Virus record (IMG/VR): IMGVR_UViG_3300005529_000007
Span: 3,169-67,168 of that record
Origin: a virus
Strand: one strand, 5' to 3'
Length of the DNA: 64,000 nucleotides
The translations under genes were made by a program, and so were the position numbers. The notes under the pieces were generated by a model, which worked only from the letters and a program-made list of their open reading frames with translations, ran no database searches and was not told the origin of the DNA. Position 1 is the first letter of the stretch; each line of letters begins with the position of its first letter. Shown here piece after piece: positions 10,428 through 60,180 of the stretch.

Positions 10428-10458
10428 CCACTACCCCCAAAACGGGTCGCATAGACAC
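10428..10458 (+). repeat. Dispersed repeat R1 (CCACTACCC-n-AAAACGGGTCGCATAGACAC)
   Basis: Matches copies at 22801, 22901, 39135, 39296, 54838 and 59987. Confidence 0.8.
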
Positions 10459-10468
10459 AAACAAACAT

Positions 10469-21904: not shown

Positions 21905-24900
21905 TGGCCGACCAAGTAGCAGATTACCTTCGTTCACAGCAAATTCCTGACAGTGTTCGAGCGGACGCTTGGGATGCGTACCATCAGGCAACTGATGCGA
22001 ACGACTTCCAGTCTCGCTTTACCAAGCTGCAAGTCCCGGACAACGTCAAGGCTGACTTGTGGGATATGCGCTTTGCTGCCCAGCCGCAACGTCGTGTTAC
22101 GAATGTCCCCACCGGGGAGATCCGCGCTGACGATAGCTGGATGTCTGGCGCTCGTCGCATGGTTGCGAACACAGCCCTGGGACATGCTCTGCAATCTTCC
22201 ATGCCGAAGGTCGCGGACTTCTTCGGGCTTACGCCTTCGCATACCGTGTACGACCCGGAGTACGAAGCTACCAAAGGCCAGCTCCTTGCTCCACAAGAAC
22301 TGATCGCCGCCTCGCAACCAGACAGTGTCATGGGCTACGTCAAGGACGCAGCCAGGGCAGGCCTGGGAGGTGTCGGATCTCTAACCTCTGGCGAGAACAT
22401 GGCCACCATGGCCGGGATCGCCACGGGTGGAGGTGCGCTGGCTGAAGTTTACTTCGGTTCGGAGATGTTGATCGGGGCCGACCAAGGACTGAAGCGCAGT
22501 TACCAGGCCGCGAGCCGAGGTGATTACCACACAGCGGCGGCTGAGTTTGGCGCAGCGGCAACTAACTTAGAACTTGGCAGACGTACTCTCCGGCACTTGG
22601 CTGGCGCGGAAACTCACAGCCCGATGCCCGGCACGAATCTTGTTGCTCCAGAAAATGGCAACGGAGTATCATCCCCGGCATCTGTACCAGCAGCACCTGA
22701 AGTTTTAGCACCCAAACCAAAAGTACCCGAGCCGCCACTCGTGCCTGAAGGGTCCGAACAACCCGCGCCCCAAGTGTCTGCCCCGCCCCCTGCGCCTGAA
22801 GTGTCTGCGCGACCCGTTTTTAAGGGGAGTGACATCGCTTCGCGCTTGGACACGATTGAACGGAGCCTGCCTGGAGAGGTACCCGAGGCGAAGCCGAAGG
22901 CACTACCCCAAAACGGGTCCCTAGAAGATGAGCCCAACTATCTCAAGCGGCCCTTGAGCGTGGACCCTGCAACAGGCGAGCGCAAGGTTATCCGGGATTC
23001 TTATCCCGAGGACATGGCAGCCCGTGGCAAGAAGAAGTTCGACTTCTACACGGATGCCAACAAGCAGATCGAGAATGCCGCCAAGTACAACCCTCAAGGC
23101 GAGCAGATCGGGGATGCGAAGATCCTGGCAGCCTACCGGGAGAACCAGGCGAATGCCGTTGCTGGCTTCCGCACCTGGGCTCAGTATGCCGACATCGAGG
23201 ATGTCAAGGGAGCTGTAAAGGATCTCGCCGCGAAGATCAAAGACGGCGGAGAACGCCTGGATATGATGCGCGTCCTAGGCTACGGCCTCTCCAAAGACAA
23301 GCTGGTATTTCACGCGGGCATCGAGGGAACCGAGCAAATCACCGAGGACGCACTCCAGAAGGCCATTGGACGCAGGACCGTTCCCAGTGTGCCCAAGGAT
23401 TACACGATTGAAGATCCCATCAAGAAGGACATGGTGGACAAGGGGCTGGCCCGTCAGAAAGACGTGGACGCCCTGGATGAGCAGATTGACAAGCTAAAAG
23501 AGACGTACAAGAAGGCCACTTCCCTCGACGAGAAGCAATCCATCAGCGATCACATTGATGCCTTGAGGGAACAGCGTAAAGCACCCTTCAAGGAAGTCAA
23601 GGACGCCAAGGCCACCCTCCGTCGTGACTGGGCCTCGAACTACATCCGCAGCAAGGGACTGGAGCTCTCCGACCAGATCGCGCACTACCGTGACCTGGCA
23701 CAGGCAGCCATCCGCGCCAAGCAGCTCAGGCCGAAAGATTTCGTAGAAGAAGTCAAGACAGACGTTGCTCCTATCCGACAACTCGGCACGGGCGAAGAAG
23801 CCGTGCAGTATTCCAAGGAGTCCATCGCTGGGGCCGTGTTCGGCTCCGAGGCAGATGCCCGCAAAGCTGCGGAGCAAGTCTATGGCGACAAGTACACACT
23901 CCGCACCCGCGAGCGAGAGGGCAAGCAAGTCTATTCTGTCCTCCCCCGTGAGGAAGTGGCGCGGCAGGTTACCGCCCAATCCACCGGGGACATAGCAGCT
24001 CGCAAGCAGAACCTGGACTTCCTGAAGAAGGAATTGACCAAAGCCACCACCGAGAAAGCGAGGCTTAAACTCCAACGTGCAATCGCAAAAGAGGAGCGTG
24101 CGCTGGGCCTTTCAGCCAGCGAAGCCCCGACAGGTCCGACCGCCGCAACTGCGGGCACCCCTAAAGCCCCCGAAGCCGCAGCGCCCACCAGAGAATCCGT
24201 TCAGGCCCCCCAGGGGACAGAAGTAAGACCTAGCTTCGACGAGCGCATGAAGGCTCGTACTGAGGTTAAGGACGACATCTTCGAGTACCGCGTACAGCAG
24301 CTCGTCAAGAAGGGCATGAGTCGCGCCACAGCCGAGCTCATGGTACGCAAGAAGATGGAGAGCGAGCGTGGCTCCTTCTCCAACAAGCCGCCCATGGGAG
24401 CTTATGGCCCCTCTGGCCCAGGCGTCCTCTGGCGTTTAGGCAGCGCCCTCGACAGAGTCTTCGGAGATCGCAGCTCAGAGGAAAAGAAACAAACCGAGAC
24501 CATCATCCGGGAAGCTGGGGGCGAACTCGCCCGCAAGCACGAGATGATCTGGAACAAGCTCCAGGAAGGCATCGACCGCCACGATGCTGATACCGAAGTC
24601 CAGACCAGGCAGTTCATGGACGCAGGGGAAATGAAACCCGGCGCAACCGTCCTCTCTCCCGAGGACCAGGCCATGGCCCAGGAACTCCACTCCATGTTCC
24701 AGGAGCGCTGGGACAAACTAAAGAACCTTCTCCCTGATCGCTTCGATGGCGCAGGGATCGAGAACTACCTAAAACACATCTGGGAAGGCAAGCGTGGCCA
24801 GGTCGCAGCCGAACGCCTCTGGCAGAGTGTCGGAGGCAAGCGGCCCCTGGAAGGCTCGGCTACCTTCGCACGCCACCGCTTCTATAGATATTTCTCAGAC

Positions 24901-26847: not shown

Positions 26848-27710
26848 CCTTTAGAGATTACGAAGCACAGTACGAGAACTTTGTCAGAATCCATCTTCGC
26901 TTTTCAACTTGGCTGCGCTACTGCGACTGCCTGGAAAAGCTCATGGAGCACTTCGGAGACCGCCACCCCAAAGACATCTTCCGCATTGATGTCATCGGCT
27001 ACGTCACCAAGCGCACCCAGCAAGGAGCTGCATATCGAACCGTAGCCCTGGAGAAGATGGTAGGGAGTGCTTTCTTTCGCTGGATGGCAGACAACAACAT
27101 CGTGGAAGAGGATCACAATCCCTTCGCTGCTACCAAGGTTCCTGGTAGGGAGCCGCAGTTTGTGCACAAGGCCCTGTCGCCTGAGACCATCAAGGCCATG
27201 TGGAACGCCACTCGTACAGACGAGGACCGTCTCCTCATGCGCCTGGCCAACACTACCCCGCTCACTGTCGGCATGATGGCCGCACTCCAGAGGGAGGACT
27301 TCGACTTCGAGAGAGCCCGTCTCACTGTCAAGCGCAGCAAGACCCAGAAGGTCGTGACGCTGCCAGTAGACCCAGCTCTCCTGGAGCAGGTGCGCAATCG
27401 CCCGCCTGGGCCGCTGTTCCCCGAGGCCGCCAAGCGCCTCCAGGGATCACGCTACCTCAGACAAAAATTTGAATGCTTAGCAAGACGGGCTGGCGTAAAG
27501 GCTACCGCCCATTGCTTCCGGCACACCTTTGCAACGGACGCGCTACGTGGTGGGATTGATCTGAGGACCGTCCAAGAACTTCTTGGTCACGCGAACATCT
27601 TAACTACTTCGCGTTACCTCGCTCCTGCCGACGTGGAGTCTGTCCGGGGTTTTCTGGAGACTCGCCCGAAGCTGGATGAAGCCAGTCCTCTTTCTCCTTC
27701 TCACTGTTAG
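26844..27710 (+). CDS. Xer-like tyrosine recombinase without an arm-binding domain
   Basis: HCFRHTFAT, VQELLGHANILTTSRY and SKT motifs; first catalytic Arg box appears degenerate (TTPLTVGM). Confidence 0.88.
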   Translation: MTFRDYEAQYENFVRIHLRFSTWLRYCDCLEKLMEHFGDRHPKDIFRIDVIGYVTKRTQQGAAYRTVALEKMVGSAFFRWMADNNIVEEDHNPFAATKVPGREPQFVHKALSPETIKAMWNATRTDEDRLLMRLANTTPLTVGMMAALQREDFDFERARLTVKRSKTQKVVTLPVDPALLEQVRNRPPGPLFPEAAKRLQGSRYLRQKFECLARRAGVKATAHCFRHTFATDALRGGIDLRTVQELLGHANILTTSRYLAPADVESVRGFLETRPKLDEASPLSPSHC

Positions 27711-28180: not shown

Positions 28181-28480
28181 AACCTAAGTTGAACGCCCTA
28201 TGAGTCTATTCGCATGAGATCGCCTGCCGCGAAACACACTGTACTCATTTCGAGAACAATCGTACTCAGAACGAGAACGAAAACTTAGGCACAACTTAGG
28301 CACAAAAAAGGGGGGCTATTCGCCCCCTTTTCGCCTTTCAGGACTCTAAAGGCAACAGATTCAACAGGACTTTTAGAATGGTACTGAGTTAAGCGCCCTG
28401 AAAGTCAAACACATAAGTTATACATTCGGTTGGATTTGGCTGTCAACCTGGGAGCAAGATGGGATCAAAATTGATCCCAA
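28181..28480. other. Candidate attP region with arm-type repeats
   Basis: Mostly non-coding, at the integrase 3' end; tandem AACTTAGGCAC x2 (28282-28303), inverted CCTAAGTT (28183-28190), GTACTCA-n4-GAGAAC x2, TGGGA(G/T)CAA repeats at 28449-28479. Confidence 0.55.
28304..28332. terminator. Bidirectional intrinsic terminator
   Basis: AAAAAAGGGGGG-CTATTCG-CCCCCTTTT between convergent gene blocks. Confidence 0.7.
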
Positions 28481-29614
28481 TTTGTTTGCCATCTTCCTGC
28501 TGTGCTCTCGGCTGGCATGGGCATAGACCTTCAGCGTAATGCTGGGATCAGAATGCCCCAGGCGTGCGGCGACCGTGCGGATGTCCTCCCCTTCAGAGAT
28601 GAGGGCCGTAGCATTCCCATGGCGAAAAGCATGGAGCCCCGCCTTGGGGATACCTAATGTGGCAAGGAGTTTTTGAAGTTTGTCTCGCACCACATATCGG
28701 CTATCCCACGGTCTTCCATTGGCGGTTGCAAACAGAAACGGCACCGAAGCGTCATGGGATCTGACGGCCAGGAAACGAAGAATATGTTCTGCAAGGGTGT
28801 CGGATATTTCAACAGAACGGATTCCACTTGCGCTTTTAGGAGTTTGAAGTCTTCCTCTCCATACTCCCTGCCGCACACGCAGACAACGGTTCGCATAGTC
28901 GAAGTCCTCCACACGAAGACCACACAGCTCACCTGCACGTAGGCCCGTCTCCGCCGCGATCAGGAAGAACGTCTTGAACGGTTCCTGGGCTGCGGATATG
29001 ATCTGTTGCATCTGCTCAGTTGTAAAGGAAGGACGTTCAACAGGCGTTAGCCTGGGGAGCACAATGCCCTCTTTGACATTGTGGGAGACATATCCCCAGG
29101 CTTTCGCTGTCTTCCACGCGGTCCTGAAGGTGGCGTAGATATTTCTAACCGTCTTCGGGCGACACACGAGCGTGGAAATAAATTGTTGCACGAGGGCTGT
29201 GGAGATGTCCCCCATGTTCATCTTCCCGAAGAAGGGCATGATGTACTTGGTCATGTGCACCTTCTCCGAGTTCTGACTAGATGGCTTGTGCTGTGGGAGC
29301 ACAGTCTTCATCCAGCGTTGTGCGAAATCGTTGTAAGACACGACCGCCTTGGGGCGGTAGCTAGTAGAGTTGATCTCCGCCAGCTTCGCTTCCAAGGCGC
29401 GTTGTGCTAGTCGTTTAGTAGGGAGTTCCTGTAGAGTCCCCAAGACCACGGACTTTTGCAAGCGGTGGGTGTTTGTAGATGCAGGGGGTGCACCACAACT
29501 CGCTCGATGTTCTGTGACAGGAGCAAGGACATCCTCCCGCCATCTCCCTACCCACACTTTGTTTCGCTTGCCCCTCAAGAACAGTTGCCCCTTCTGATAC
29601 CTTCTCCGGGCCAT
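28418..29614 (-). CDS. int: Phage integrase (tyrosine recombinase with arm-binding N-terminus)
   Basis: ATG 29614 with SD AGGAG; MARRRYQKG...WVGRWRE; TGLRAGEL, TPKS, HAFRH and RLGHSDPSITLKVY motifs. Confidence 0.93.
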   Translation of the reverse strand: MARRRYQKGQLFLRGKRNKVWVGRWREDVLAPVTEHRASCGAPPASTNTHRLQKSVVLGTLQELPTKRLAQRALEAKLAEINSTSYRPKAVVSYNDFAQRWMKTVLPQHKPSSQNSEKVHMTKYIMPFFGKMNMGDISTALVQQFISTLVCRPKTVRNIYATFRTAWKTAKAWGYVSHNVKEGIVLPRLTPVERPSFTTEQMQQIISAAQEPFKTFFLIAAETGLRAGELCGLRVEDFDYANRCLRVRQGVWRGRLQTPKSASGIRSVEISDTLAEHILRFLAVRSHDASVPFLFATANGRPWDSRYVVRDKLQKLLATLGIPKAGLHAFRHGNATALISEGEDIRTVAARLGHSDPSITLKVYAHASREHSRKMANKLGSILIPSCSQVDSQIQPNV

Positions 29615-29936
29615 GTTTATCTCCTGGCCCGTTGAAACTATTGCCAGGGGTATTGTACTCTCTTGGGTAGGCTGCATACAAGACTGCGTAGTTGATGATG
29701 TCGGCAATGGTGTCCTGGAGTCCTTCATCTTCAACCGCGAAGTGTCCCTTCTCCTCGTAAGATACTAGCCGTGCGATCTTGTCCGACATGCGGACAAGTA
29801 TTCCGTAGGTGCCAAAGGCTCGGAAGTTGGCGAAGATGTCGCTGCTCCGTCCGTAGTCTTGGTTCTTCTTCTCCATGACGGCTCGCGCCTTCCTGGAAAG
29901 ATCGGCGTGAAACGCCAGTAGCTCTTGTCTATTCAT
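29415..29936 (-). CDS. DUF1599-like (all-alpha NTP pyrophosphatase-related) protein
   Basis: KKNQDYG, RMSDKIARL and DTIADIINYAVL motifs; C-terminal tail overlaps the integrase. Confidence 0.75.
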   Translation of the reverse strand: MNRQELLAFHADLSRKARAVMEKKNQDYGRSSDIFANFRAFGTYGILVRMSDKIARLVSYEEKGHFAVEDEGLQDTIADIINYAVLYAAYPREYNTPGNSFNGPGDKHGPEKVSEGATVLEGQAKQSVGREMAGGCPCSCHRTSSELWCTPCIYKHPPLAKVRGLGDSTGTPY

Positions 29937-38480: not shown

Positions 38481-38876
38481 TTAGGCCGCTGGCTTCACGT
38501 TGAAGATGTCCAGATTGGCCCGAGCGCGGGGGTACTCAGGAGTAGGGGCGGAGTGCTTCACAGCAGCCGAGAAGCGCGAGCCACTCGCTGCGTTAAGAAC
38601 TTCCACCGGATTCTGCCCAGGTGTCGAATCCAAACCCATCACTTCGATGAGCCGCTTGAGAACGCGAGGACTCCAGTCATAGTGTTCAGGATTCGGATAC
38701 GAGAACGTCAGGCGACGGCCAGTGAATTCACCGTCGTTTACAATGGTAGCGCTGGCTACGATCCGACCAGATTCGTCTTCACGTGCGCCTGGAGCTAACT
38801 CCCAGGTGTAAGTTTTCTCAGGAATGGTTTCGAGATTCGTAGAGATGTTAGAGAGATCAATGTTTTGCCAACCCAA
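38481..38876 (-). CDS. DUF669-like single-stranded DNA-binding protein
   Basis: TTG 38876 after GGAGG; IPEKTY...DGEFTGRRL; clustered with the Sak4-like ATPase. Confidence 0.65.
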   Translation of the reverse strand: MGWQNIDLSNISTNLETIPEKTYTWELAPGAREDESGRIVASATIVNDGEFTGRRLTFSYPNPEHYDWSPRVLKRLIEVMGLDSTPGQNPVEVLNAASGSRFSAAVKHSAPTPEYPRARANLDIFNVKPAA

Positions 38877-38907
38877 AGGTGCGACTTCCTCCAATTTTGT
38901 CTTGCAA

Positions 38908-38940
38908 AGATTAGACGCTCCAGACGATAATTTCTTGTCT
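38908..38940 (-). promoter_or_regulatory. Phage ECF-sigma promoter P2
   Basis: AGACAAGAA-N13-GCGTCTAATCT. Confidence 0.78.
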
Positions 38941-39126
38941 ATGCCAACCAAAAAACGGGTCTGGACGCCTGAACAACGGGCACGAGTAGCAGCCTCGCAG
39001 AAAGCTCGCTGGGACGCTAAACGTGCCGCAACAACCACCAGCACGCAAGTCAACACGATCAGGGACTCGGAGTCCTACCGCATTGGTTATCGTGATGGCT
39101 ATAAAGATGGACGAGAGGGGAGATGA
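38941..39126 (+). CDS. Small basic putative DNA-binding protein, antisense to its block
   Basis: MPTKKRVWTPEQRARVAASQKARWDAKRA...GYRDGYKDG. Confidence 0.6.
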   Translation: MPTKKRVWTPEQRARVAASQKARWDAKRAATTTSTQVNTIRDSESYRIGYRDGYKDGREGR

Positions 39127-39134
39127 TCCCCTCC

Positions 39135-39325
39135 TGTCTGTGAACCCGTTTTTGGGGTAGTGGTACAGGGTTTCCGCAGGGCTTGTAGCCCATTGGAGGC
39201 TTGTTGAGAGGCACTACCCACCGGACCAGAACGGGTCAGAAACTGGTTGCCCGGATTTCGCAACCTCTCGCATCCTTGGCTTGCGAACCCTGTATCCACT
39301 ACCCTAAAAATGGGTCGAACAGACA
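39135..39325. repeat. ~190-bp palindromic element bounded by repeats R4 (-) and R5 (+)
   Basis: About 45-bp imperfect terminal inverted repeats; internal stems GAGAGG/CCTCTC, ACCAG/CTGGT and GGGCT/AGCCC. Confidence 0.75.
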
Positions 39326-39410
39326 AAAACTTGGCCCGAGTCATATTCCCTACTTCCTCTTGGGGCCAGCGCGGCGTTGCAAAATTTCACTAGGGAACCG
39401 CGAGATCGAA

Positions 39411-39464
39411 CTACTTGCTAAATTTCTTGCTCGACTTCTTTGCGGTTTTCTTCTTCGTTGCCAT
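39411..39464 (-). CDS. 17-aa Lys-rich micropeptide
   Basis: MATKKKTAKKSSKKFSK after a strong SD AAAGGAGG. Confidence 0.4.
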   Translation of the reverse strand: MATKKKTAKKSSKKFSK

Positions 39465-39773
39465 TTGACCCTCCTTTCGTAGGCTCGATTGAGTTCTTCC
39501 ACTGACGCAAGGTCAGCCCGTGATAGACATAGCAATCACCACAGCACGTCCAATGTGGGCCGATGCCGTGGCATTCACAACTACACTGGGGTTGGACCAT
39601 CATCGTTTCCTTTCCAGACCAGAACCATAAGCATGAGCAGGATGCCTTCGAGGGCATACGTTAGGTAGCTCACGACTTCCGCCTAAACTTCTCCCAACAC
39701 TTGAGGCAGCCCTTGCCACCGTTACAGCGCGGGACTCTGATGCCCTTGTATCGTTTGTAGTTCTTGCACATTT

Positions 39774-39959
39774 TCATACAAAATGCTCCCCGCACACGTA
39801 CTGACTGTAGTGATACCGTTCCTGCAAAGGAGGAGGCGGACCGTACTTGCGATAGCGATGTGTGTGACCGCGCCCGCAGAGGACGCACTCGTCTGACTCA
39901 AACTCATACCAGTAAGAACCAGTACGGTATTGAATCTCCGGCACACCCCAAGCTCTCAT
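39774..39959 (-). CDS. Small Zn-binding hypothetical protein
   Basis: CVLC...CGEH; ATGA overlap with the upstream gene. Confidence 0.5.
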   Translation of the reverse strand: MRAWGVPEIQYRTGSYWYEFESDECVLCGRGHTHRYRKYGPPPPLQERYHYSQYVCGEHFV

Positions 39960-40780
39960 GCCACTACCGCGCTCGTGTACCCTGCTTTGATTTTCTCTAG
40001 CAGCATGTTAAACGTCCCCCTGCCCTCCGTGGGTTTCCCCTCGACGGGCTCGAAGATCTCCTCCCGATCAAGCAGCGCCTTGCTGGAACTATTGGCCCTG
40101 CACTTCGCCACGACGCCACCTTCCGGCTGCGTCACCAGGAACCTCTGGCTGTACTTCGACTTCGCATCTGCGGGATTCCGCAACGCTGTCCGCGTCCGCA
40201 TCCTCAGCACAAAGTCAAACATCGCTGGCGCTCCCAGGAACATCTGCCCTGGTAGATCTGGCCCGATGAGGCTCTCCGTCCCTGGAGGATCATCCGGTCC
40301 AGCCTTGTCATACTTCTCCAGCGCTGTCACAATAATGTGCTTGTCGGGGGCAGAGTCGAACAGCCTGACGAGCAGCCTACGGGATAGTTCTCCCATGACC
40401 TGGTAGTCATCGAGCTCCGGTATCCCCTGCTTCCGCTTGTCCGACTCGCCCCTTGCCCGTGGGATCTGGAGGGCCGCTGCCTTGATGTGCTTGCGCACAA
40501 CTTCGGTCCAGGAGTCCACAATCAGGCTATCTTTATCTTTGAAGATCTCTCCTGAGCAGAATTCTTCCACTTCCTTGAAAGACTGAGGTATGACAAAATC
40601 AACTGCACGATCAGCAATAGTAAGTAACCCATTACCTTGCCCTGTCTCACAAGCGCAGCACCCAGGATTAGGAGCCCCACCAGCCCAAAGAGTTTTACCA
40701 GTTCCCGGCAGTCCATATACCAGGACCTTAATCTTGAGATTATCCGCATTGACCAGTTCCTTCGTGTTTCTTATCTGCAA
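39956..40780 (-). CDS. Sak4-like / AAA_24 ATPase (ssDNA annealing)
   Basis: VLVYGLPGTGKT, LIVDSWT, HIIVTALE and FDFV motifs. Confidence 0.82.
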   Translation of the reverse strand: MQIRNTKELVNADNLKIKVLVYGLPGTGKTLWAGGAPNPGCCACETGQGNGLLTIADRAVDFVIPQSFKEVEEFCSGEIFKDKDSLIVDSWTEVVRKHIKAAALQIPRARGESDKRKQGIPELDDYQVMGELSRRLLVRLFDSAPDKHIIVTALEKYDKAGPDDPPGTESLIGPDLPGQMFLGAPAMFDFVLRMRTRTALRNPADAKSKYSQRFLVTQPEGGVVAKCRANSSSKALLDREEIFEPVEGKPTEGRGTFNMLLEKIKAGYTSAVVA

Positions 40781-42268: not shown

Positions 42269-43369
42269 TCACAGTTGTGCCTTTCCTTTCCAACGTTCTC
42301 TGAAGTCAACTTCCGGGTCCGCCACCAGGGCCTTGTGTCCCTGGCTTAGGACCTTGTCCACAAGCCTCCGCGCATTGACATCCTTCTCCTTGAATAGCTC
42401 GAACCAGTTCACGAGCTGCTTCCAGGGGATGGTCGTTCGCTTGATGTGCTCTAGCGCAACCTGCGGCTCGGCTGCTGCCAGCTTAGCCGCAGTGAGGCAT
42501 AAAAAAGCATTCCTGGGATCGTAGAGCCAGCTCGCCATGGTGCGGTACTCGGTGTGGAGATGCCACGAGGGGCGATAAGCAGGATCGTATTTAAGGTGCC
42601 GCTGGACCCGCACATCTCCATAGTGCCCGTAATCCCCGGAAGATCGACGGGTCTGTGACTCATGATTCGGAAGAATGTCTAGCTGTTCCAATCGGGCGGT
42701 GATAGTATCCAGGGCCTTGACTCTCGCCTTGTGCTCATCTGTCCAGGTTTCTTCAACTAGCACCTGCTCAGGATTGTCCGGGTCACGCACGACACTGGTC
42801 TCGTGCACATATCCTTCCTTCAAGGGGGAGATGTCCAGGTGCACGTGGCCTCCCAGGGTCACGGTCCTCCCCGCCAGGCGCGACACGGCCCCGGCCTTCC
42901 ACTTGTTGCCCAGGTCCAGGGAGTCTGCCCTCATCATTAGTTCCTTGAGTCTCTTAACCAAAGTAAAGGTCCCCTTCGCAGGCTGTGGCCGAAGCTCCGC
43001 CACGTACCCGCTATGGTCCCAACCGATCTGCCCCGCATGAGGCAGCTTGTGCGATAGATTCACGCCCTCTCCCGCAGCGTCAAAGACAACAAACTCAGGA
43101 TCACAACCTACAAGAAATGAATTGACCACAACTTCTTCAACCTCCGGTGAAGGTACATCGCCTTCACTTCTATAGTGTCGAGCGTACAAATTTTGGGACT
43201 GGAGGAGTATGCCCAAGGGGCGACTCTGGGAAAGCTGAACCTGGGCTAGTTGGTTCCCATACGACCCCATCAGTTGATTCGTATAGGCATTCCGCCCCTC
43301 TTCAAAGCCCTGCTGAAACGCCTGCATCCCTAGTCCAAGCAAATCCCCCAGCCCGCTAAACCCTCCCAT
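42269..43369 (-). CDS. phiEco32-like COOH-NH2 ligase (paralog 1)
   Basis: GCDPEF, AELRP, GGHVH, YGDVR and EYRT motifs. Confidence 0.82.
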   Translation of the reverse strand: MGGFSGLGDLLGLGMQAFQQGFEEGRNAYTNQLMGSYGNQLAQVQLSQSRPLGILLQSQNLYARHYRSEGDVPSPEVEEVVVNSFLVGCDPEFVVFDAAGEGVNLSHKLPHAGQIGWDHSGYVAELRPQPAKGTFTLVKRLKELMMRADSLDLGNKWKAGAVSRLAGRTVTLGGHVHLDISPLKEGYVHETSVVRDPDNPEQVLVEETWTDEHKARVKALDTITARLEQLDILPNHESQTRRSSGDYGHYGDVRVQRHLKYDPAYRPSWHLHTEYRTMASWLYDPRNAFLCLTAAKLAAAEPQVALEHIKRTTIPWKQLVNWFELFKEKDVNARRLVDKVLSQGHKALVADPEVDFRERWKGKAQL

Positions 43370-43901
43370 CGCGCATCCTCTCTTCCAGCCTGCGCCAACG
43401 CGAGGTCACACAATCCAAGGTCTCGCCTGACTTCTCAGCAATCTCCGGGAGGGTCATACCCTCCAGCTTGCATCGAACTAAAAACATCTCCTCTTCTTTT
43501 AAGCCCTCGGTCAGCTTCTCCAGGGCGATCTCCGCCTCCAGGCTGTCCTCGAACATCCCCGCCCCCACGTCATCCGTGAGCTCCACCTGCTGCCTGCGCA
43601 TCTTGTCGCGGATCGCAGTGCGGCACAGGTTGAGTACAATGGCATGGAACCAGGTGGAGAATTTGCTATCCCCCCGGAACTTGTCAGACATGTAAAGGGC
43701 TTTGGTAATGGCCTCGTCAGCGATCTCCTGATCGCTTCGGCCTAGAGTGAGGACGCAGACACTTTCTGCGTGATAGCGCAGGGCCTTGAAGAGTTTCTCC
43801 AGCACTTGCTCGTCTTGCGTCTCGCGCCAGAGTTGAAACAGTTCGTTCTCATCGCCGCCACCAACCCCAGTGTTTGAGGTCGTAAAAGAACAAGTGGACA
43901 T
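43356..43901 (-). CDS. ECF-type sigma-70 factor
   Basis: Region 2 KFRGDSKFSTWFHAIVLNLC; region 4 EGMTLPEIAEKSG. Confidence 0.87.
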   Translation of the reverse strand: MSTCSFTTSNTGVGGGDENELFQLWRETQDEQVLEKLFKALRYHAESVCVLTLGRSDQEIADEAITKALYMSDKFRGDSKFSTWFHAIVLNLCRTAIRDKMRRQQVELTDDVGAGMFEDSLEAEIALEKLTEGLKEEEMFLVRCKLEGMTLPEIAEKSGETLDCVTSRWRRLEERMRDGRV

Positions 43902-43970: not shown

Positions 43971-44201
43971 TCATGCTGCTCTCCCTGCCTCGTGCTCCCG
44001 CTGCACCCACCACAAGGCCAACTCTACTCGATTCGAGAGACCCGTCTTGTCATAGATGCAACAGACATAATTCTTTATTGTGTTCTCTGTGGTTCCGATA
44101 GCGTTGGCCACTTCCCGGTTTGTGTTTCCGTCTGCGACCAGGCGGACGACATCTCGTTCTCGGGGAGTGAGCTCACGCTTCCCTTCGTATCTTGTAGGCA
44201 C
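43971..44201 (-). CDS. LuxR-type HTH protein
   Basis: LTPRERDVVRLVADGNTNREVA...TIKNY...IYDKTG..NRVEL. Confidence 0.9.
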   Translation of the reverse strand: MPTRYEGKRELTPRERDVVRLVADGNTNREVANAIGTTENTIKNYVCCIYDKTGLSNRVELALWWVQREHEAGRAA

Positions 44202-44584
44202 AGATCCTCCTTGTAAATCAGGACAGCCAACTTCACGCGCTTGACCCCGGTGTCAATTCCATAACGGTCGTACATATTGTTCAGGTGCTGCTTGACTGAA
44301 CGGTTTGCGATTCCCAACGTCTTTGCCATGTCTCGGGTCTCGTAACCCTGGAGAAGAAGCTCGACAATCTGCCGCTCGCGGGGGGTGAGGGTGTCCCGCA
44401 TCTTGTCGCGTGGCATGGTCGCGGCCAGTACTTCACGGGCGAAGGCGGTTACTGTATTTACCATCTGCCGGACTTTGGCATCGTGAAACATTGGAAGTCC
44501 GTATCTATAGCTGTCGTAATTGCGGGCTATTTCGTCGAGCTTCCATACCAATTCAAGCGCTCGCTTCTCTAGATCGTCGCTCAT
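44075..44584 (-). CDS. Protein with a LuxR-type HTH domain
   Basis: LTPRERQIVELLLQG...MAKTLGIANRSVKQHL. Confidence 0.8.
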   Translation of the reverse strand: MSDDLEKRALELVWKLDEIARNYDSYRYGLPMFHDAKVRQMVNTVTAFAREVLAATMPRDKMRDTLTPRERQIVELLLQGYETRDMAKTLGIANRSVKQHLNNMYDRYGIDTGVKRVKLAVLIYKEDLCLQDTKGSVSSLPENEMSSAWSQTETQTGKWPTLSEPQRTQ

Positions 44585-44775
44585 CGCCATCGTAGTATCT
44601 CCCCCATGAGAATAATTCCGCTGACTACGCCGAAGAATAGCCCGGCTCCTGCGGCAAACGCTGCCGCCCTAATCGCCCTTGTGTCGCTTACACTTTCGCA
44701 GTAAGTATGCAGCCCACAGAACTGGCACTTGCCAGGAATATCGCAGCCTTCGAAGTTCTCTAGATCGTCGCTCAT
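44581..44775 (-). CDS. Small protein with CxxC and a C-terminal TM segment
   Basis: Coupled ORF; first 20 nt identical to those of the next gene. Confidence 0.55.
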   Translation of the reverse strand: MSDDLENFEGCDIPGKCQFCGLHTYCESVSDTRAIRAAAFAAGAGLFFGVVSGIILMGEILRWR

Positions 44776-46529: not shown

Positions 46530-46724
46530 CTAATCTACCAGTCCCTTGGTGAGTTCATACCGCAACTGCTCGGCCCTTCTCATGGCTTCTTCCCGAGGGT
46601 TGTACCAATCCCAATAGAGATTCCCAACCCTCACCCAGCCACCGCGCCCATCTTCGGGCACTTCTACTTCAACCATTGCTCGGATGCGTCTCCGCAGCAC
46701 CCTTGCGTCTACGGTATCCGCCAT
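46530..46724 (-). CDS. Hypothetical protein
   Basis: SD GAGGTG; 64 aa. Confidence 0.5.
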   Translation of the reverse strand: MADTVDARVLRRRIRAMVEVEVPEDGRGGWVRVGNLYWDWYNPREEAMRRAEQLRYELTKGLVD

Positions 46725-47460
46725 TGACCCACCTCACAATGTGCTCCGCAAGAGACGTGATGCCCTGCCGCCGATCTTGCACACCTGGGGCGGTGTTGAC
46801 CTCCAGGACAAACATCCTATCGTCCATGCTGTGGATGATGTCCACGGCCCCGAAGTCCAGGTCCATCGCCTCGACCGCCGCTGACCCGAGGTCCTTCAGC
46901 GCTTGCGGTGCATTATCGTAAAATCTAAACGCAAAACCGTGTCCCCAGTTCCACCCGATGCCCGCCGTTCGTCCAACACCGTATCTTTCAGGGTACTGCA
47001 TAACTTTCTCATACACTGCGATAGGTCTCCGGCGATACGCCCAGACTCGATACTCTCGTTGCCTCGGGATATACTGTACGAAATAATCACAAGCACCTCC
47101 TTGTGTGCGCCATGTGAACTCCACATCATTCTGGAGTATTGGCACGATGTCCTTCGCCTTCGAGTGCTTGAACTTGCGCCCTAAGATGGGGAAGGAAAGT
47201 GGCTGGCCATTCGTCCACCCGCCATTCGTGCTCCAGGTATTATGTGGAGGCACAAGAACTCCTCTGCTGTGCAGGCGCTGGAGTTCCTGGAATTTGTTTA
47301 GCCTGCCTGCATTGCCATTGAGCACGGGCACCGAAGCAGCCACGGGGACGCCATAAGAAACTATGGCTTCCCCCGGTGTGCCGATCTGTATCCCTTGCTC
47401 TTGTAGGAGCTGCCCCAACAGTCTCCCGGTGTCCCCTTTTACTGCGCGAAGTTCGATCAC
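46669..47460 (-). CDS. ATP-grasp ligase (RimK/YheCD-like)
   Basis: QYIP..REYRV, LDFGAVD and VLEVNTAPG motifs. Confidence 0.87.
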   Translation of the reverse strand: MIELRAVKGDTGRLLGQLLQEQGIQIGTPGEAIVSYGVPVAASVPVLNGNAGRLNKFQELQRLHSRGVLVPPHNTWSTNGGWTNGQPLSFPILGRKFKHSKAKDIVPILQNDVEFTWRTQGGACDYFVQYIPRQREYRVWAYRRRPIAVYEKVMQYPERYGVGRTAGIGWNWGHGFAFRFYDNAPQALKDLGSAAVEAMDLDFGAVDIIHSMDDRMFVLEVNTAPGVQDRRQGITSLAEHIVRWVNGGYRRRKGAAETHPSNG

Positions 47461-47469
47461 AAAGACTCC

Positions 47470-47931
47470 TTAAAGTTGTTTCGACCAGAACTCAACCACG
47501 TGTTTCTCCATGTAGTTTGAAGCAAAGCTCCCGGTCGTCTTCCATCCTTGTTTCAGTAGCAAGGTGCGCTCGACGATGTTGTCCTCACGTACTGTGGCAA
47601 CGAGCACTTCTGCCCCTGCCTTTCGTGCGATCTCTTCTCGGTAGCTCGCCATGAGCGTGCCGATCCCACGCCCTCGTTGAAAGCGGCTGACACTCACCTC
47701 GTGCGACACCAGAATCAAGTCGTTCCCTGGCATTGGAGCCAGGGCAAAGTTGCACAGACAGAAGCCATTACTTTCCCCTTCACGAACCATGATGCTGGCG
47801 TGAAAGTTGTCTCCTGCCGAGTTGGTGGTCAGCCTGAGATTCTCTGGCCTGATGTAAGTAAGCCTTGCGATGGTCCGCAAGGCTTCCTCGTTGAGTACCT
47901 CTTTCGTCTTTTCGTCGAGTGTGTAGATCAC
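47470..47931 (-). CDS. GNAT acetyltransferase
   Basis: V...QRGRGIGT acetyl-CoA motif; ATVREDN...KQGW. Confidence 0.85.
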   Translation of the reverse strand: MIYTLDEKTKEVLNEEALRTIARLTYIRPENLRLTTNSAGDNFHASIMVREGESNGFCLCNFALAPMPGNDLILVSHEVSVSRFQRGRGIGTLMASYREEIARKAGAEVLVATVREDNIVERTLLLKQGWKTTGSFASNYMEKHVVEFWSKQL

Positions 47932-48887
47932 GCCTTCAACTCCTTGACTGCGAGGAATGTATTACAACCAGTGCAAACCAGTTCCCAGAGGGGCTGGTTC
48001 TTCTGGCTGTGCGTAAGACTCACGTACTTTTTGCACCCCGGACACTCCACTACATCCAAGGTCTTCTCGTCGTAGTACCGTGTGCGATGACTACGATAGT
48101 TGTCGTGCAGCTTCCCATAGTCCGGGGCAGTGTAGAACTTCGCCACCCGGAACTCGTCATGCCACTCCAGCCCACGTTCCCCGAACATGTAGATCGAGTC
48201 GTTGTTCATGGTGATAAAGGCCAGGTCCGCCCGATTGGGCTGCATGAGCAACCCATGCCGCTCTACGAACGGCCTCATGGCATTATGTATCGCCTGCTTT
48301 TCACTACTCCACACCAGCAAGTTCGGCGTGCTCGCCAGCACGAGCGGGCTCCCGCTGCGTGCCAGGACCAGCTTGCCTGGATACGCATTGGCAATGGCTG
48401 CGATGGCCACGGAACCTGAGATCTTCCTCAAGGCCCGCAGACCCTTCATCGTAAAGCCCCCCTCATCGAGGATCGCCCGCAGGATGTCGCTGTCCACGTC
48501 TGCCTTCCGGTCCAGCGAAAGCTCCCGGAACAACGTGTCATCGTTGTGAATCATGCCGTTGTGCACCACTGCCACGTTCCCGGCAAACACAGGATGATTA
48601 TTGGCGTTGTCCTTCGGGTTGCCTTGCGTCGCTGCTCTTGTGTGCCCCAGGAAGATCTCGGTCTCTTCCCTCAGGTGAGCTGTAAGAAACTCCTTATACG
48701 CCCGGCTCCTCACGAAGTGATTCGCAGGCTCGTCCTGCTTGAGCACCTGGACTTCTTCGCCAGGATTTTGCAAGGCCATCCCCGTGGCGTCCAGCCCACG
48801 TCTCTCATTCGCGCAGAGAAGCGTGGTGATCTTCTCCTCGGTTATAGGTTCGTCGCCAAAGCGGCGGATGCCGCAGATTCCACACAT
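47928..48887 (-). CDS. Class II glutamine amidotransferase
   Basis: N-terminal MCGICG, GHTRAATQG, NNHP, HNGMI and VDSD motifs. Confidence 0.9.
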   Translation of the reverse strand: MCGICGIRRFGDEPITEEKITTLLCANERRGLDATGMALQNPGEEVQVLKQDEPANHFVRSRAYKEFLTAHLREETEIFLGHTRAATQGNPKDNANNHPVFAGNVAVVHNGMIHNDDTLFRELSLDRKADVDSDILRAILDEGGFTMKGLRALRKISGSVAIAAIANAYPGKLVLARSGSPLVLASTPNLLVWSSEKQAIHNAMRPFVERHGLLMQPNRADLAFITMNNDSIYMFGERGLEWHDEFRVAKFYTAPDYGKLHDNYRSHRTRYYDEKTLDVVECPGCKKYVSLTHSQKNQPLWELVCTGCNTFLAVKELKA

Positions 48888-49213
48888 GACTGTTCTCCTC
48901 GTCCGCTCCAGGCATATCCCTGGATTTCGGCTTTCTCTCGCTCGGATAGCTCTCCGAAAAACTTCCATTTGTACTGCTGCATCCAGGAAAGGTGCTTTGC
49001 CTTATTCTGGTGTTTGATAACCCACTTGCGAAATCCGGTTACGTACATACTGCTTTTCCTTGTGTTGCAGAGAGCACAAGCCGGGACCAGGTTCTGTTGG
49101 TACTGATGTCTCGTCCAACCCCTGGGTAAGTACACCCTCGGTACTTGGTGATCTCTGGTTGTGGCAGGTTGCCCACAATACCAGCAGGGTTTCCCCCTTA
49201 CATAAGACTTCAT
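48842..49213 (-). CDS. HNH endonuclease
   Basis: CWYCG...DHQVP...NLVPACALCN. Confidence 0.85.
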   Translation of the reverse strand: MKSYVRGKPCWYCGQPATTRDHQVPRVYLPRGWTRHQYQQNLVPACALCNTRKSSMYVTGFRKWVIKHQNKAKHLSWMQQYKWKFFGELSEREKAEIQGYAWSGRGEQSCVESAASAALATNL

Positions 49214-49277
49214 GGCGCGGTCCCCAAAGAAAAGGGGCAAGATGTACTATCCTCGCCCCCCAGAGTCGAAGCAGCTA

Positions 49278-50786
49278 CTACTCCAAGTCTTTGCTTGGGT
49301 ATTCGTACAACACTTTGCCCTTGAATCTGACAGGAGCGGGAACATATTGGGATTTCCACTCCTTCAGACTGTCGCGGTGAACTTTTTTTATGTCCCAGAT
49401 AGGCAACACTCCGTTGAGTAATGCCTTCTTCATCTTGTGGAACCGCTCGCCTTCGCGCCAGTCGGCACCAATGGAGATGTGCTTTCCTCCATCTGCCTCG
49501 AAGGTCTTGACCGAAAACGGGAACCTGGTCTGCCAGCCAGAGGGCAGGTACTTCACCAGGCTCCTGGACAACATCAACGGATGCACGCCTCTTGTATGCC
49601 CTTGTATGGACATCTTCAATTCCTTGTGGTAGCAGATGTCCCAGATCATCTCGCCCAGGCCCTTGGCTTGGTGAGTATTGGCCGTAGCCAGCGCCAGGGC
49701 ATAGCCATCCGGCAACACAGTCGGGTGCCAGGTAGCTGTCGGCGTCCTCGCAGGAATGGGCACGCCCGAAAAGAGATGGTCAAACATGTCCCGGACATCC
49801 TGCTCACTGGGAGCGATGCTCAAAGGCACAACCTTCACGGGCGTCTTCTCTGTCGGGGTCGTGATCCCCCAGCGTCCCTTGAAGTCCCAGCCCACATGCC
49901 TCGGGAACCCGCCGCGCTTAATTAGGTACAGCGCCAGCAGAGCGTCATCGTCCGTGTCCTTGAAGTACGCCAGGAGGTTCCGCAACTTGGCCGCAAGTAC
50001 CGTAGGATTAGTTCCGTTCCCCGATCTCGTCACCAGCCCTGGGCAATGCACACACAGCTTCGCCAGGGTGATGCTGATAAAGGCCAGCGCTGGGCTGTCT
50101 AGCCAGCTCGGAAACGTGCGGTACTCATAGCCGTGGGTCTGTAGCCTAAAGTCCCCCGGCATCCCGTAATGCTGGCCCAGTCGATCCCCGCCTCGCCTCT
50201 CGGCCATCTCTCGCGTGGGATAGACGCCCATGCCAAGCAGATCCTCGGTGAGATTGTCCAGGGCACGGACCTCATCGGCTCTCGTGGGCCGCTTGCGTCC
50301 CATGTGCACATGCCCGCCAATCCCGTCACCAAAGACAAATGCCCCACAGCGCCATTGGTACGTCGTAATACCTTCCACTAAGGTGGACATCCACCTCAGG
50401 GTGCTCAGAATGCTCGCGCACACACGCAGCGCACACCGGCTCGGGTGAGGCCGAATCTCTGCCAGTCGCCCGTTGTTGTCTGCGCCAAACGCTGGCCCTT
50501 GTTGCAAGCCCAGGTGATGTGCATCCACCCGAGAATCCTCATCTCTCGTCAGCCCACTGCTCACGAACACGAACTCCGGGTCAGCTCCCAGCTTGAAGCG
50601 ATTCACATACCGCCTCTGCGGGCCGAACTCGGGCAACTTCTGGAGCCGTTTCAACCAGCTCTCTAGCTTCTGGTCGGAGACCGTGTAGCCCAACGGGAAC
50701 GCACGGTGGATTCCCTCCGGCGCAGAGATCCCGTGGCTGATGGCCACCCGATAAAAGGCATCCTTGAGTTTCACAAGTTCGCTCAT
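49278..50786 (-). CDS. phiEco32-like COOH-NH2 ligase (paralog 2) with C-terminal extension
   Basis: GADPEF, AEIRP, GGHVH, YGMPGDFR and EYRTFPSW motifs. Confidence 0.83.
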   Translation of the reverse strand: MSELVKLKDAFYRVAISHGISAPEGIHRAFPLGYTVSDQKLESWLKRLQKLPEFGPQRRYVNRFKLGADPEFVFVSSGLTRDEDSRVDAHHLGLQQGPAFGADNNGRLAEIRPHPSRCALRVCASILSTLRWMSTLVEGITTYQWRCGAFVFGDGIGGHVHMGRKRPTRADEVRALDNLTEDLLGMGVYPTREMAERRGGDRLGQHYGMPGDFRLQTHGYEYRTFPSWLDSPALAFISITLAKLCVHCPGLVTRSGNGTNPTVLAAKLRNLLAYFKDTDDDALLALYLIKRGGFPRHVGWDFKGRWGITTPTEKTPVKVVPLSIAPSEQDVRDMFDHLFSGVPIPARTPTATWHPTVLPDGYALALATANTHQAKGLGEMIWDICYHKELKMSIQGHTRGVHPLMLSRSLVKYLPSGWQTRFPFSVKTFEADGGKHISIGADWREGERFHKMKKALLNGVLPIWDIKKVHRDSLKEWKSQYVPAPVRFKGKVLYEYPSKDLE

Positions 50787-50980
50787 AGTTCGGTCCTCGG
50801 CTCCAAGTGCACCAGCCCTCCACAAGAAGAACAAATCACGTAGGGAAATGGCATCGAATTCACGGATGTTTCATGCACGCTGCCACACACGCTACAAGCT
50901 CCCCACATCCCTCCTACTTCTTCTGCGGCAGTAACCCCGTCCAGCTCGTAGATCTCCCCGTCTACATGTTGCTCAGCCAT
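50783..50980 (-). CDS. Zinc-ribbon protein
   Basis: CSVC...CSSC; ATG 50980. Confidence 0.55.
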   Translation of the reverse strand: MAEQHVDGEIYELDGVTAAEEVGGMWGACSVCGSVHETSVNSMPFPYVICSSCGGLVHLEPRTEL

Positions 50981-54331: not shown

Positions 54332-54619
54332 TCATCTCCCCTCGTGCACTGAGTAAGCCACCGCAGCACTCTCAGTGCCGATCAGTGCCCATTTGAAAAT
54401 CTTGGCCGCTCGCTTATGCCCGTGCTTGTTCAGCTCATGCGTAGCGAGGATCTCCAGCCCCAGGTCGGCTGCACATGAGCCGTACCCAATCGCTGGTCCA
54501 TGCGTAACAAATGGACGGGCTATGGGGTTTATCTCCCGATAGCCCCCTCTGTCCAGGCGCTGCATTGTGAGCTGGCAATCTGTGGCCGTCAGGGCCATCA
54601 ACAGGGCGAGTGTCTTCAT
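54332..54619 (-). CDS. Membrane hypothetical protein (E-x-N-P family)
   Basis: D..LT...GGYREINPIARP followed by hydrophobic helices. Confidence 0.6.
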   Translation of the reverse strand: MKTLALLMALTATDCQLTMQRLDRGGYREINPIARPFVTHGPAIGYGSCAADLGLEILATHELNKHGHKRAAKIFKWALIGTESAAVAYSVHEGR

Positions 54620-54828
54620 CGCTTGAATCCAAGAACTGTAAGGGCCTCTTGTATCTGGGCATCTCGCTTCGCCTTCGCTGCCTCAATGCGTTGTATTTCT
54701 TCTTCGCGGCACTTGGGGCAGAGGTAAGATAGAGAAGCGTAATCAGATGCCACATACTGCATCTTCACCCCATGCTTGCAGCAGTAGCCATTCCTAGCGA
54801 GCACATTGAGGGCTTCATCACGATTCAT
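54616..54828 (-). CDS. Small Zn-finger protein
   Basis: CCKHG...CPKC. Confidence 0.6.
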   Translation of the reverse strand: MNRDEALNVLARNGYCCKHGVKMQYVASDYASLSYLCPKCREEEIQRIEAAKAKRDAQIQEALTVLGFKR

Positions 54829-55265: not shown

Positions 55266-55583
55266 TTAATAGAAAATTCCATTCCAATTCTGATTGTCGT
55301 AATACGTTTCATACTGCGGCTTGGGATCTGTCTTGACCTTCACCAGGACATCCTCACAGCTTTTCCTGCCGCAACAGGGCACATGGCCCTTGGCCAAATG
55401 AAACGCAGGTCTGGCACAGCCCCGGCAGATAAACCTTGGCAATTTCCCCCTGCCTTTACAGGTCACACAAATGGGATCTTGCTTCTGGTATCTCGGGTCC
55501 ACTCGTGTCCCAAGCCCTCTACAAATGGGACACACGTCCACTACGATTTCTTTGCCAGTCGCTTGCTCGCTAGAATTCCCCAT
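55266..55583 (-). CDS. DnaJ-type CxxCxGxG zinc-finger protein
   Basis: CPICRGLG and CVTCKGRG. Confidence 0.65.
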   Translation of the reverse strand: MGNSSEQATGKEIVVDVCPICRGLGTRVDPRYQKQDPICVTCKGRGKLPRFICRGCARPAFHLAKGHVPCCGRKSCEDVLVKVKTDPKPQYETYYDNQNWNGIFY

Positions 55584-56971: not shown

Positions 56972-56976
56972 GGTAC

Positions 56977-57384
56977 TCAATGTCCTTTCCCAGTGACTTC
57001 AAATCTCTTGTGAAAGCACAGTTGAACCAGATCAGCCGCGAACTCAATGCACGTATGATGTACTTGATACGCGGCCATCACCTGCTCAACCCATTTGCGG
57101 TCTTCAACAAGGCTAAGCACATCTTTCAACGTAGCCTTGTATAGTTTGAGTTGCAGCTTCTCCATGACCATCTTGGCTGCCCCCTTGGCATACTGCTCTC
57201 TTTCATGCTGTCGTCTCACCAAGTTGTGCCAAGCGACTTGTTCAGGAGTACCTTCTTGCAGCAAACGTTCATCGGTTACTGTCCTGAGCCCATGCACGAA
57301 TTTTCCCCTTGAGCGAAGTGCCCTCCCGAGAGCGAGCCCAAAAACCGTCGCACGTTCACGTCTTTTGGGCGTAAAAAAGGCCAT
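56977..57384 (-). CDS. Hypothetical protein (start uncertain)
   Basis: ORF abuts the ligase gene; its 5' end overlaps a terminator. Confidence 0.5.
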   Translation of the reverse strand: MAFFTPKRRERATVFGLALGRALRSRGKFVHGLRTVTDERLLQEGTPEQVAWHNLVRRQHEREQYAKGAAKMVMEKLQLKLYKATLKDVLSLVEDRKWVEQVMAAYQVHHTCIEFAADLVQLCFHKRFEVTGKGH

Positions 57385-59952: not shown

Positions 59953-60180
59953 TTAAGTTCTCTCCACCGCCCCCAAGTGCGAGTCGCTCTGTGCGACCCG
60001 TTTTTCGGGTAGTGCTAGAACAAGCTCTTGCCCATAGGGCACCACAACCCAGTCATCCATATGTGTCTTGGTATGTCCCGCAAGGTTGCGCATCATATCT
60101 CTCGCAACCTCCAAGGACATGTAGGAGGCCGACAATCTCCGCCAGCCCCCTGTTCGCAACTTAAGCGCGAGCTGATACAT
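59953..60180 (-). CDS. Hypothetical protein
   Basis: ATG 60180 after GAGGAG. Confidence 0.55.
   Translation of the reverse strand: MYQLALKLRTGGWRRLSASYMSLEVARDMMRNLAGHTKTHMDDWVVVPYGQELVLALPEKRVAQSDSHLGAVERT
59987..60014 (-). repeat. Dispersed repeat R7 (inside a CDS)
   Basis: Reverse complement CACTACCCGAAAAACGGGTCGCACAGAG. Confidence 0.78.

Follow-up and report, generated by a model that had tools for sequence, protein, structure and literature searches.

A palindrome in the replication gene block of a phage contains a conserved, putatively RNA-level element that shares its words with a dispersed motif

A palindrome of about 190 bp in the replication and recombination gene block of a phage genome very probably contains, in its interior, a minus-strand member of a conserved family of structured elements. 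The two words that this interior displays also make up a short motif that is dispersed over the phage genome. Judged by sequence comparison, the element probably acts as RNA rather than as single-stranded DNA. We give about even weight to the more specific view that the palindrome is a long-stemmed copy of this element, made as an operon-sense RNA with a processing or protection stem that would be tied to the motif network.

Genomic context of the palindrome

The window, by which we mean the whole analysed stretch of 64,000 nucleotides, corresponds to bases 3169-67168 of a 67,168-bp virus record that has direct terminal repeats and is rated complete. The structural genes (portal, major head protein, and tail proteins) occupy the plus strand up to ~27.7 kb and are followed by two tyrosine recombinase genes, and a minus-strand gene block from ~62 kb down to 28 kb includes polA, primase, exonucleases, a Sak4-like annealase, and two sigma-like proteins. 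The palindrome lies within this block, 624 nt downstream of the Sak4-like gene and 250 nt upstream of a gene for a 133-aa protein, and a lone plus-strand open reading frame (ORF) adjoins it:

39956..40780, minus strand: gene for the Sak4-like single-stranded DNA annealase, upstream neighbour of the element family (phrog_124, E 7e-29; PF13479)
39135..39325, minus strand: whole palindromic element, i.e. outer helix P0 and conserved core in operon sense (repeats, folding)
38941..39126, plus strand: lone ORF of 61 aa, not conserved (no relatives, no Pfam or PHROG family)
38481..38882, minus strand: gene for the 133-aa OB-fold, PrgE/SSB-like protein, downstream neighbour of the element family (AlphaFold model and structure comparison)

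The 133-aa protein is without a Pfam or PHROG family, and a PDB sequence search with its profile gave nothing meaningful. Its AlphaFold model (pLDDT 87.8) resembles the OB-fold protein PrgE (E 2e-4, TM 0.54) and also bacterial single-strand-binding proteins (SSBs; E 2e-3 to 2e-2), and tblastn found relatives in 66 of 128 related loci. The pairing of Sak4 with an SSB is already known in the literature.

Elsewhere in the minus-strand block, gene 43356-43901 has only sigma-70 region 2 and the adjacent gene 44075-44590 only a region-4/GerE-type helix-turn-helix; together, these small genes resemble a phage sigma factor split in two. Genes for a glutamine amidotransferase, an acetyltransferase, and an ATP-grasp-like protein accompany three phiEco32-like COOH-NH2 ligase genes (within 42269-43369, 46669-50834, and 55541-56980, minus strand), and this set may be a modification pathway. 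At the junction of the structural and replication blocks, the two tyrosine recombinase/integrase genes are convergent (26844-27710, plus strand; 28418-29734, minus strand). No tRNA or tmRNA was found in the window; one related locus (L024) has a tRNA gene at 4260-4353, upstream of sak4 (Rfam, 32.9 bits). A DNA similarity search against 50,697 deposited phage records gave no match to the window.

A conserved element family downstream of sak4

Searching for related loci with single proteins gave none with Sak4 and one relative of 26% identity with polA, and an exact-motif scan of IMG/VR gave a single, unrelated match in a 512-kb contig. An alignment of 34 Sak4 homologues was used to fetch relatives and yielded 21 IMG/VR loci and 80 metagenome loci. 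Sak4-like homologues are numerous, many of them on 65-70-kb contigs, and in many of the fetched loci a hairpin-rich element lies just after sak4.

Model R1 was built from nine members of one subtype of this element, and model R2 from five relatives of a second subtype, with the present phage deliberately left out. With R1, 36 loci gave 39 matches, every one of them on the sak4-sense strand, and the window gave none at E<=1. R2 gave 10 matches, one of which lies in the window, on the minus strand only:

39198..39284, minus strand: core matched by model R2 (P1, P2, and conserved junctions; 31.4 bits, E 1.8e-5)

This E value stems from 472,576 bases searched on both strands. The match spans model positions 21-105 of 128 and comprises the interior of the palindrome only, with P0 outside it, and it is this interior that we assign with high confidence to the element family on the minus strand.

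At E<=1, both models together matched 43 of 93 sources (42 loci and the window), where 9 duplicate loci were left out and many of the unmatched sources are short contigs that end near sak4. The element is on the sak4-sense strand in all 42 loci. In 41 of them it lies 6-1700 nt downstream of sak4, after the Sak4-like annealase gene and before the OB-fold SSB-like gene, and the exception (L010) has it ~2.5 kb upstream. It is ~100-145 nt long, and its carriers are related phages of 54-70 kb. Whole records contained one match each (G001-G004 with R1, G006 and G007 with R2), and G005 has a single copy, at locus L014. R2 found no match at E<=0.1 in the whole records G008, G009, and G010, nor did R1 at E<=1 in their 10-kb loci (L007, L012, and L023). 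Three loci have a tandem double element (L019 at 3885-4097, L069, and L075), and the first copy of the tandem is much more diverged (17.8 versus 89.3 bits).

The family fold consists of a conserved single-stranded hexamer, an outer helix P0, a helix P1, and a two-part hairpin P2, to which one subtype adds a hairpin P4 that is capped by a conserved four-base loop. At Rfam 15 gathering scores, there was no match in the window, and the sole match in 17 related loci was a tRNA elsewhere, with none for the element; permissive Rfam scans of the window and the relatives gave chance-level matches only.

Covariation and strand of the element

The family alignments contain compensatory, helix-keeping changes, as is generic for structured non-coding RNAs. 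In unfitted MAFFT alignments, compensatory double changes were present in 14 of 18 pairs of the first subtype and in 14 of 31 pairs of the second. The model-fitted alignments A4 and A6 lean towards their own models and phylogenetic relatedness remains in the covariation figures, so that the following values are supportive and not formal tests: in A4 (32 distinct rows), 95.6% of the cells were paired, all 18 pairs had double changes, and 163 cells were doubly changed versus 42.5 in shuffles (0 of 500 shuffles as high), with pairing dropping to 46.7-58% when the partners were slid; in A6 (10 rows), 90.1% of the cells were paired and 21 of 31 pairs had double changes.

On the sak4-sense strand, A4 contains 40 G-U versus 14 A-C combinations. 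A terminator-like hairpin begins within one base of the end of the element on the sense strand in two of four relatives scanned, and the scan rule found none after the element in the other two. It is from such comparison among relatives that the strand and the probable RNA nature of the element are deduced.

Architecture of the palindrome in this phage

An initial annotation, made from the letters of the window, had described a ~190-bp palindrome whose arms are two copies of a repeat, and this architecture was confirmed by an inverted-repeat search, by folding, and by the recurrence of the arm words. The search found inverted arms of 20 nt at 39144-39163 and 39296-39315, which are 90% complementary and 132 nt apart. 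Segment 39125-39335 folds with -96.9 kcal/mol on the plus strand (z -7.2) and with -94.7 kcal/mol on the minus strand (z -5.95), in both cases with 0 of 200 shuffles as good. For exactly 39135-39325, the values are -95.9 (plus) versus -89.6 (minus) kcal/mol, and the plus strand forms an outer helix of 40 pairs, including two G-U pairs, both of which are C-A mismatches on the minus strand. The imperfect terminal repeats that had been put at ~45 bp are a helix of 40 pairs, and the inner stems are nested inside it in both foldings, as annotated. The "several" plus-strand G-U mismatches were rightly assigned to that strand and are only two in number.

In operon sense, the parts of the element are arranged as follows:

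39327..39332, minus strand: conserved single-stranded hexamer directly 5' of the outer helix, present in nearly all family members (invariant columns in alignments A3 and A5)
39281..39325, minus strand: 5' strand of P0, a copy of the dispersed motif, forward from boxA to boxB on the minus strand
39221..39254, minus strand: helix P2 with its loop (covariation of P2)
39230..39237, minus strand: boxA in the P2 loop, the same word as in the dispersed motif copies
39212..39219, minus strand: boxB just 3' of P2, the same word as in the dispersed motif copies
39135..39179, minus strand: 3' strand of P0, a motif copy in opposite orientation, forward on the plus strand

P0 usually comprises ~14 bp of lineage-specific sequence in the family, and in this phage it comprises ~40 bp that are an inverted pair of the phage's own dispersed motif. 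The palindrome seen earlier is therefore P0 plus core. The one contig assembled from a DNA sequencing run that may be the source was identical, with no joints or variants, within what contigs, which drop rare variants, can reveal. The palindrome is adjoined on its left by a short G+C-rich inverted repeat at 39110-39138, whose 12-nt arms are 83% complementary with 5 nt between them and which shares bases with the stop codon of ORF 38941-39126.

Phage G009, whose Sak4 is 52% identical, has a 121-nt palindrome after sak4 (6075-6195 in locus L012, 43490-43610 in the record). The arms of this palindrome are a ~30-nt hairpin motif that recurs at ~10 other sites of the 70.5-kb phage, and its interior matched neither R1 nor R2. 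G009 is one other lineage that repeats the palindrome design with arms from a dispersed motif.

The annotated neighbourhood with the lone plus-strand gene was correct, as ORF 38941-39126 stops 9 nt before the element. In an otherwise minus-strand operon, a sigma-70-like promoter match on the plus strand (38902-38931) directly precedes this ORF. A sigma-70 scan found no minus-strand promoter match around the element in this phage, and between 38300 and 40100 neither strand has an intrinsic terminator, i.e. a G+C-rich hairpin followed by a T run. The ORF 39099-39344 (81 aa), whose conservation as a protein would have spoken against the initial interpretation, is not conserved: together with the 61-aa plus-strand ORF and two further overlapping frames, it had 0 tblastn matches (E<=0.01) in 128 related loci (833,667 bases).

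A dispersed motif shares its words with the core

With up to three mismatches, the 20-nt arm word occurs four times in the window, versus 0.00 expected from 100 shuffles. The ~30-nt motif of this phage has six copies (two arms, three single copies, and one partial copy), and the core contains an additional split copy. The copies outside the palindrome are:

10428..10460, minus strand: single copy in the intergenic space that follows the portal gene and a small gene; antisense to the plus-strand structural genes
22901..22920, minus strand: partial copy inside an ORF of 1647 aa
54839..54866, minus strand: single copy in operon sense; 12 nt separate its end from the start codon of gene 54616-54828
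59985..60020, plus strand: single copy, antisense to the minus-strand early genes

The motif is 20-30 nt long and differs from phage to phage, and in every phage examined its copies are far more numerous than expected by chance; within a genome, the copies share 83-90% identity over 27-35 nt. G001 contains 10 copies and G004 contains 16, each versus 0 for the reversed control, and G005 has 17 copies plus the core (reversed control 0). According to listings read by eye, boxB is present at 13 of 15 boxA sites in G006, the remainder being the core and one site without boxB, and at 9 of 11 boxA sites in G007.

In six phages, lineage by lineage, the 5' half of the motif (boxA) is the word of the P2 loop, and the 3' half (boxB) is the word just 3' of P2. 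The present phage has the same boxB variant in the core (39212-39219) and in the dispersed copies, and this word occurs 8 times in the genome versus 2 times for the reversed word. The two halves are partly complementary within each lineage, so that the motif is able to form a small hairpin, and they change in step across lineages (sequences read by eye). In G005, G006, and G007, again by eye, this hairpin pairs better on the strand opposite to the one that reads from boxA to boxB. As the core shows boxA in the P2 loop and boxB 3' of P2, we infer that it shares a factor with the dispersed copies.

With respect to genes, an ORF starts 4-13 nt after the motif end at 7 of the 17 copies in G005 and at 1 of 5 copies scanned in this phage. 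Nine copies in G005 are antisense and lie at gene ends or between genes, and short cassettes are enclosed by a sense copy followed by an antisense one. Roughly half of all dispersed copies run antisense to the local genes, and a reader that acts purely at the RNA level in mRNA therefore leaves them unexplained. This phage (10428-10460) and G005 (19133-19150) agree in the place and the orientation of the antisense copy after the portal gene but differ in its motif sequence.

Sense/antisense pairs also surround single small ORFs or ~100 nt in G005 (40264-40387 and 10978-11364) and in G007 (19478-19854), and these bracketing pairs give potential long-range hairpins like the palindrome of the window. 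A motif copy lies near or in the 5' end of the polA frame in L020 (7263-7279), L021 (7261-7276), L024 (8527-8542), L075 (6368-6383), L085 (5352-5367), and L087 (6260-6276); those of L020 and L021 are antisense and ~70-115 nt inside the frame. The polA frame of the present phage has no such copy.

Three readings of the motif or its boxes were discarded. A promoter for a phage sigma factor does not fit, as there is no conserved upstream (-35-like) box around the motif and the orientation is mixed. Chi-like or nick-site functions do not fit copies that are strand-balanced and differ in sequence between related phages. We judged a classical H-type pseudoknot between boxA and boxB to be sterically unlikely by our own reasoning because a connecting loop of 1 nt would have to span a helix of 8-9 bp.

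Discussion

In the interpretation that we prefer, the element would be transcribed together with the minus-strand replication and recombination operon, and the ~40-bp duplex P0 could serve as a processing or protection stalk of the kind that RNase III cuts, which would free or stabilise the core. The core in turn could bind, titrate, or be controlled by a factor specific to the phage that also recognises the motif copies scattered near the starts and ends of genes, with the exposed boxA and boxB tying the RNA to this factor as decoy, target, or competitor. Such a decoy or regulator mechanism for the core is offered tentatively. Points against this interpretation are the two wobble pairs that favour the plus strand, the plus-strand promoter-like match and ORF that point into the element, the antisense half of the dispersed copies, the lack of an R1 match in the window and the restriction of the R2 match to the interior, the lack of a minus-strand promoter or terminator match around the element, and the better pairing of the motif hairpin on the opposite strand in G005-G007. 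A wider view, which we consider rather doubtful, is that of an RNA-centred recognition system, in which a single structured RNA with a split motif copy co-evolves with a motif that marks 10-18 gene boundaries per genome. The RNA might then present itself as a mimic or decoy to whatever factor recognises these dispersed signals, it might pair with antisense copies and thereby free or block the start-linked ones, or it might guide annealase-driven pairing at motif sites that primes replication or recombination. As a variant, the element may be a ribozyme of a new kind that cleaves itself at the conserved hexamer immediately preceding the outer helix.

The main rival to a structured RNA is a role at the DNA level in replication or recombination, for example as an origin or as a single-strand hairpin for priming or strand annealing, with the dispersed copies as sites for the same DNA- or single-stranded-DNA-binding protein. 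This role would suit the location, with a Sak4-like annealase encoded on one side, an OB-fold SSB-like protein on the other, and the exonuclease, primase, and polA genes nearby; it would also suit the dispersal of copies every few kb on both strands in coding and non-coding DNA and the better pairing of the motif hairpin on the strand opposite local sense copies in G005-G007 (by eye). We nevertheless regard it as fairly unlikely, since G-U exceeds A-C by 40 to 14 on one fixed strand relative to sak4, one subtype has a four-base-loop helix and an elaborate junction that are typical of RNA, sense-strand terminator-like hairpins follow the element in two of the four relatives scanned, and the cumulative GC skew does not turn at 39 kb. 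Selfish spread is unlikely as well: a REPIN- or MITE-like doublet, whose inverted copies flank a conserved core by chance, would explain why this phage and G009 have singlets and inverted doublets of one repeat, why inverted doublets also occur in G005 (10978/11364 and 40264/40387) and L021 (4075/4126), and why copies within a genome are so alike (83-90% over 27-35 nt). The palindrome does have the terminal inverted repeats of a MITE, as the initial annotation had proposed; only its arms recur, however, with no second full-length copy in the window, and in relatives the homologous core occupies the corresponding position and is closed by outer stems that are short and unrelated. The target-site duplication expected of such an insertion is lacking, as the bases just outside 39135 and 39325 differ (by eye), and a core that is single-copy and shares one locus in 41 of 42 relatives speaks against the presence/absence polymorphism of a MITE, the contig of the closest relative (L028, 70% Sak4 identity) ending before the site. 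Furthermore, PHROG or Pfam scans of 78 window proteins found no transposase, the sole recombinases being the two tyrosine integrases; the post-portal copy keeps its place and orientation in this phage and G005 despite differing sequence; the motif changes in step with the core boxes across lineages; and for 7 of the 17 copies in G005 a start codon follows at a distance of 4-13 nt. For the window, a conserved functional reading thus replaces the mobile-element reading.

The initial annotation had also considered a plus-strand structure, namely a structured 3' RNA of a lysogeny or antisense transcript. Such a structure could end or stabilise the transcript of 38941-39126, or it could be part of an RNA antisense to the operon. 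Only this strand forms the two G-U pairs in the outer stem, its fold is ~6 kcal/mol better for 39135-39325, and the sigma-70-like match at 38902-38931 lies just before the ORF, 9 nt past whose stop the element starts. However, both wobble positions fall on one given strand with a chance of one in four, the ORF has neither a relative in 128 related loci nor a Pfam or PHROG family, and no terminator-like match was found on either strand. The conserved interior was matched on the minus strand only and is homologous to a family that is fixed on this other strand, with sak4 sense in 42 of 42 loci. We regard the plus-strand reading as quite unlikely. That the palindrome is incidental to a real gene, either ORF 39099-39344 (81 aa, minus strand) or 39201-39482 (93 aa, plus strand), is very improbable. 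Both frames are indeed open, but they found 0 tblastn matches at E<=0.01 in 128 loci (833,667 bases), in which the neighbouring 133-aa protein matched 66; in addition, the 81-aa ORF has no Pfam or PHROG family, and the insertions and deletions among family members are not multiples of three. Hardly any credence is given to an inverton, in which a recombinase acting on the arms would flip the 100-nt interior. The short segment between inverted repeats and the two tyrosine recombinase genes of the phage would fit such a switch, but the family keeps one orientation relative to sak4 in 42 of 42 loci, and the further arm copies elsewhere in the genome would permit large rearrangements.

Comparison with known systems

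REP and REPIN sequences, which are associated with RAYT transposases, are short hairpin repeats dispersed either singly or as inverted doublets, the latter folding into long hairpins. The phage motif likewise occurs as singlets and inverted doublets. In contrast to REP/REPIN systems, no HUH/RAYT (Y1) gene was found among 73 ORFs scanned against PHROGs and 23 against Pfam, with small ORFs partly covered; the phage copies keep their positions across divergent phages, many of them exactly before start codons, and the unique core carries the motif in split form.

RNase III stalks, as in rRNA precursors and T7 early mRNA, are long near-perfect duplexes formed by sequences that flank a functional RNA in a polycistronic transcript. 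By analogy, P0 of this phage is a long near-perfect duplex that flanks a putative functional RNA, whereas the ~14-bp P0 of the relatives is too short for a typical RNase III site. 6S RNA has ~190 nt and a long closing duplex around an internal unpaired region. The element resembles it in its length of ~190 nt and its long closing duplex, and the phage encodes its own sigma-like proteins; it differs in that the window has no Rfam 6S match and the motif lacks promoter signs (no upstream -35-like conservation, mixed orientation).

Among catalogued RNAs, the freshwater-1 RNA (RF02979) can be aligned over its whole 62-position model to L014 5948-6010 (sense), where it covers the P2 hairpin and the following conserved tail. 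This alignment scores only 19.4 bits versus a gathering score of 72, and the phage family is two to three times longer, with the outer helices P0 and P1. At E<=10, freshwater-1 had no match in the window or in 7 other relatives of the L014 subtype, and our search found no paper on the freshwater-1 motif. The element adds a well-supported, uncatalogued RNA-like family (42 loci) to widespread uncultured soil and freshwater phages.

Further structured RNAs that precede a phage single-strand-binding protein gene are the autoregulatory leader of T4 gene 32 and the candidates described ahead of gp32-type SSB genes (Fremin et al. 2023, PMC10690425). Compared by description only, our element differs in that the SSB-like gene starts 250 nt downstream and that many relatives have a small ORF in between. 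The contig numbers of six relatives are absent from 6 supplementary files of that study (Fremin et al. 2023, PMC10690425), and the family may be in its files 1, 2, and 4. No paper linking phage Sak4 with a noncoding RNA was found.

For the dispersed motif, the closest described parallel is SAS/ESAS of Cluster K mycobacteriophages, a short, asymmetric, group-specific motif with 10-20 repeats per genome (Pope et al. 2011, PMC3203893). According to the sections of this description consulted, SAS lies a few bases before start codons, includes a ribosome-binding-like stretch, and differs in sequence between subgroups; its function is unknown, and the authors leave both an RNA and a protein reader open (PMC3203893). 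Almost all SAS share one orientation, and they are confined to the non-structural genome half (PMC3203893), whereas about half of the copies analysed here are antisense and copies are spread across the whole genome. The same sections on SAS contain no matching structured RNA locus (PMC3203893), whereas the similar motif system described here comes with a single, strongly covarying locus that holds the same two words, and motif and locus change together across at least five lineages. Phage-specific start motifs such as SAS have been unexplained since 2011, and the structured locus is a testable candidate for their partner.
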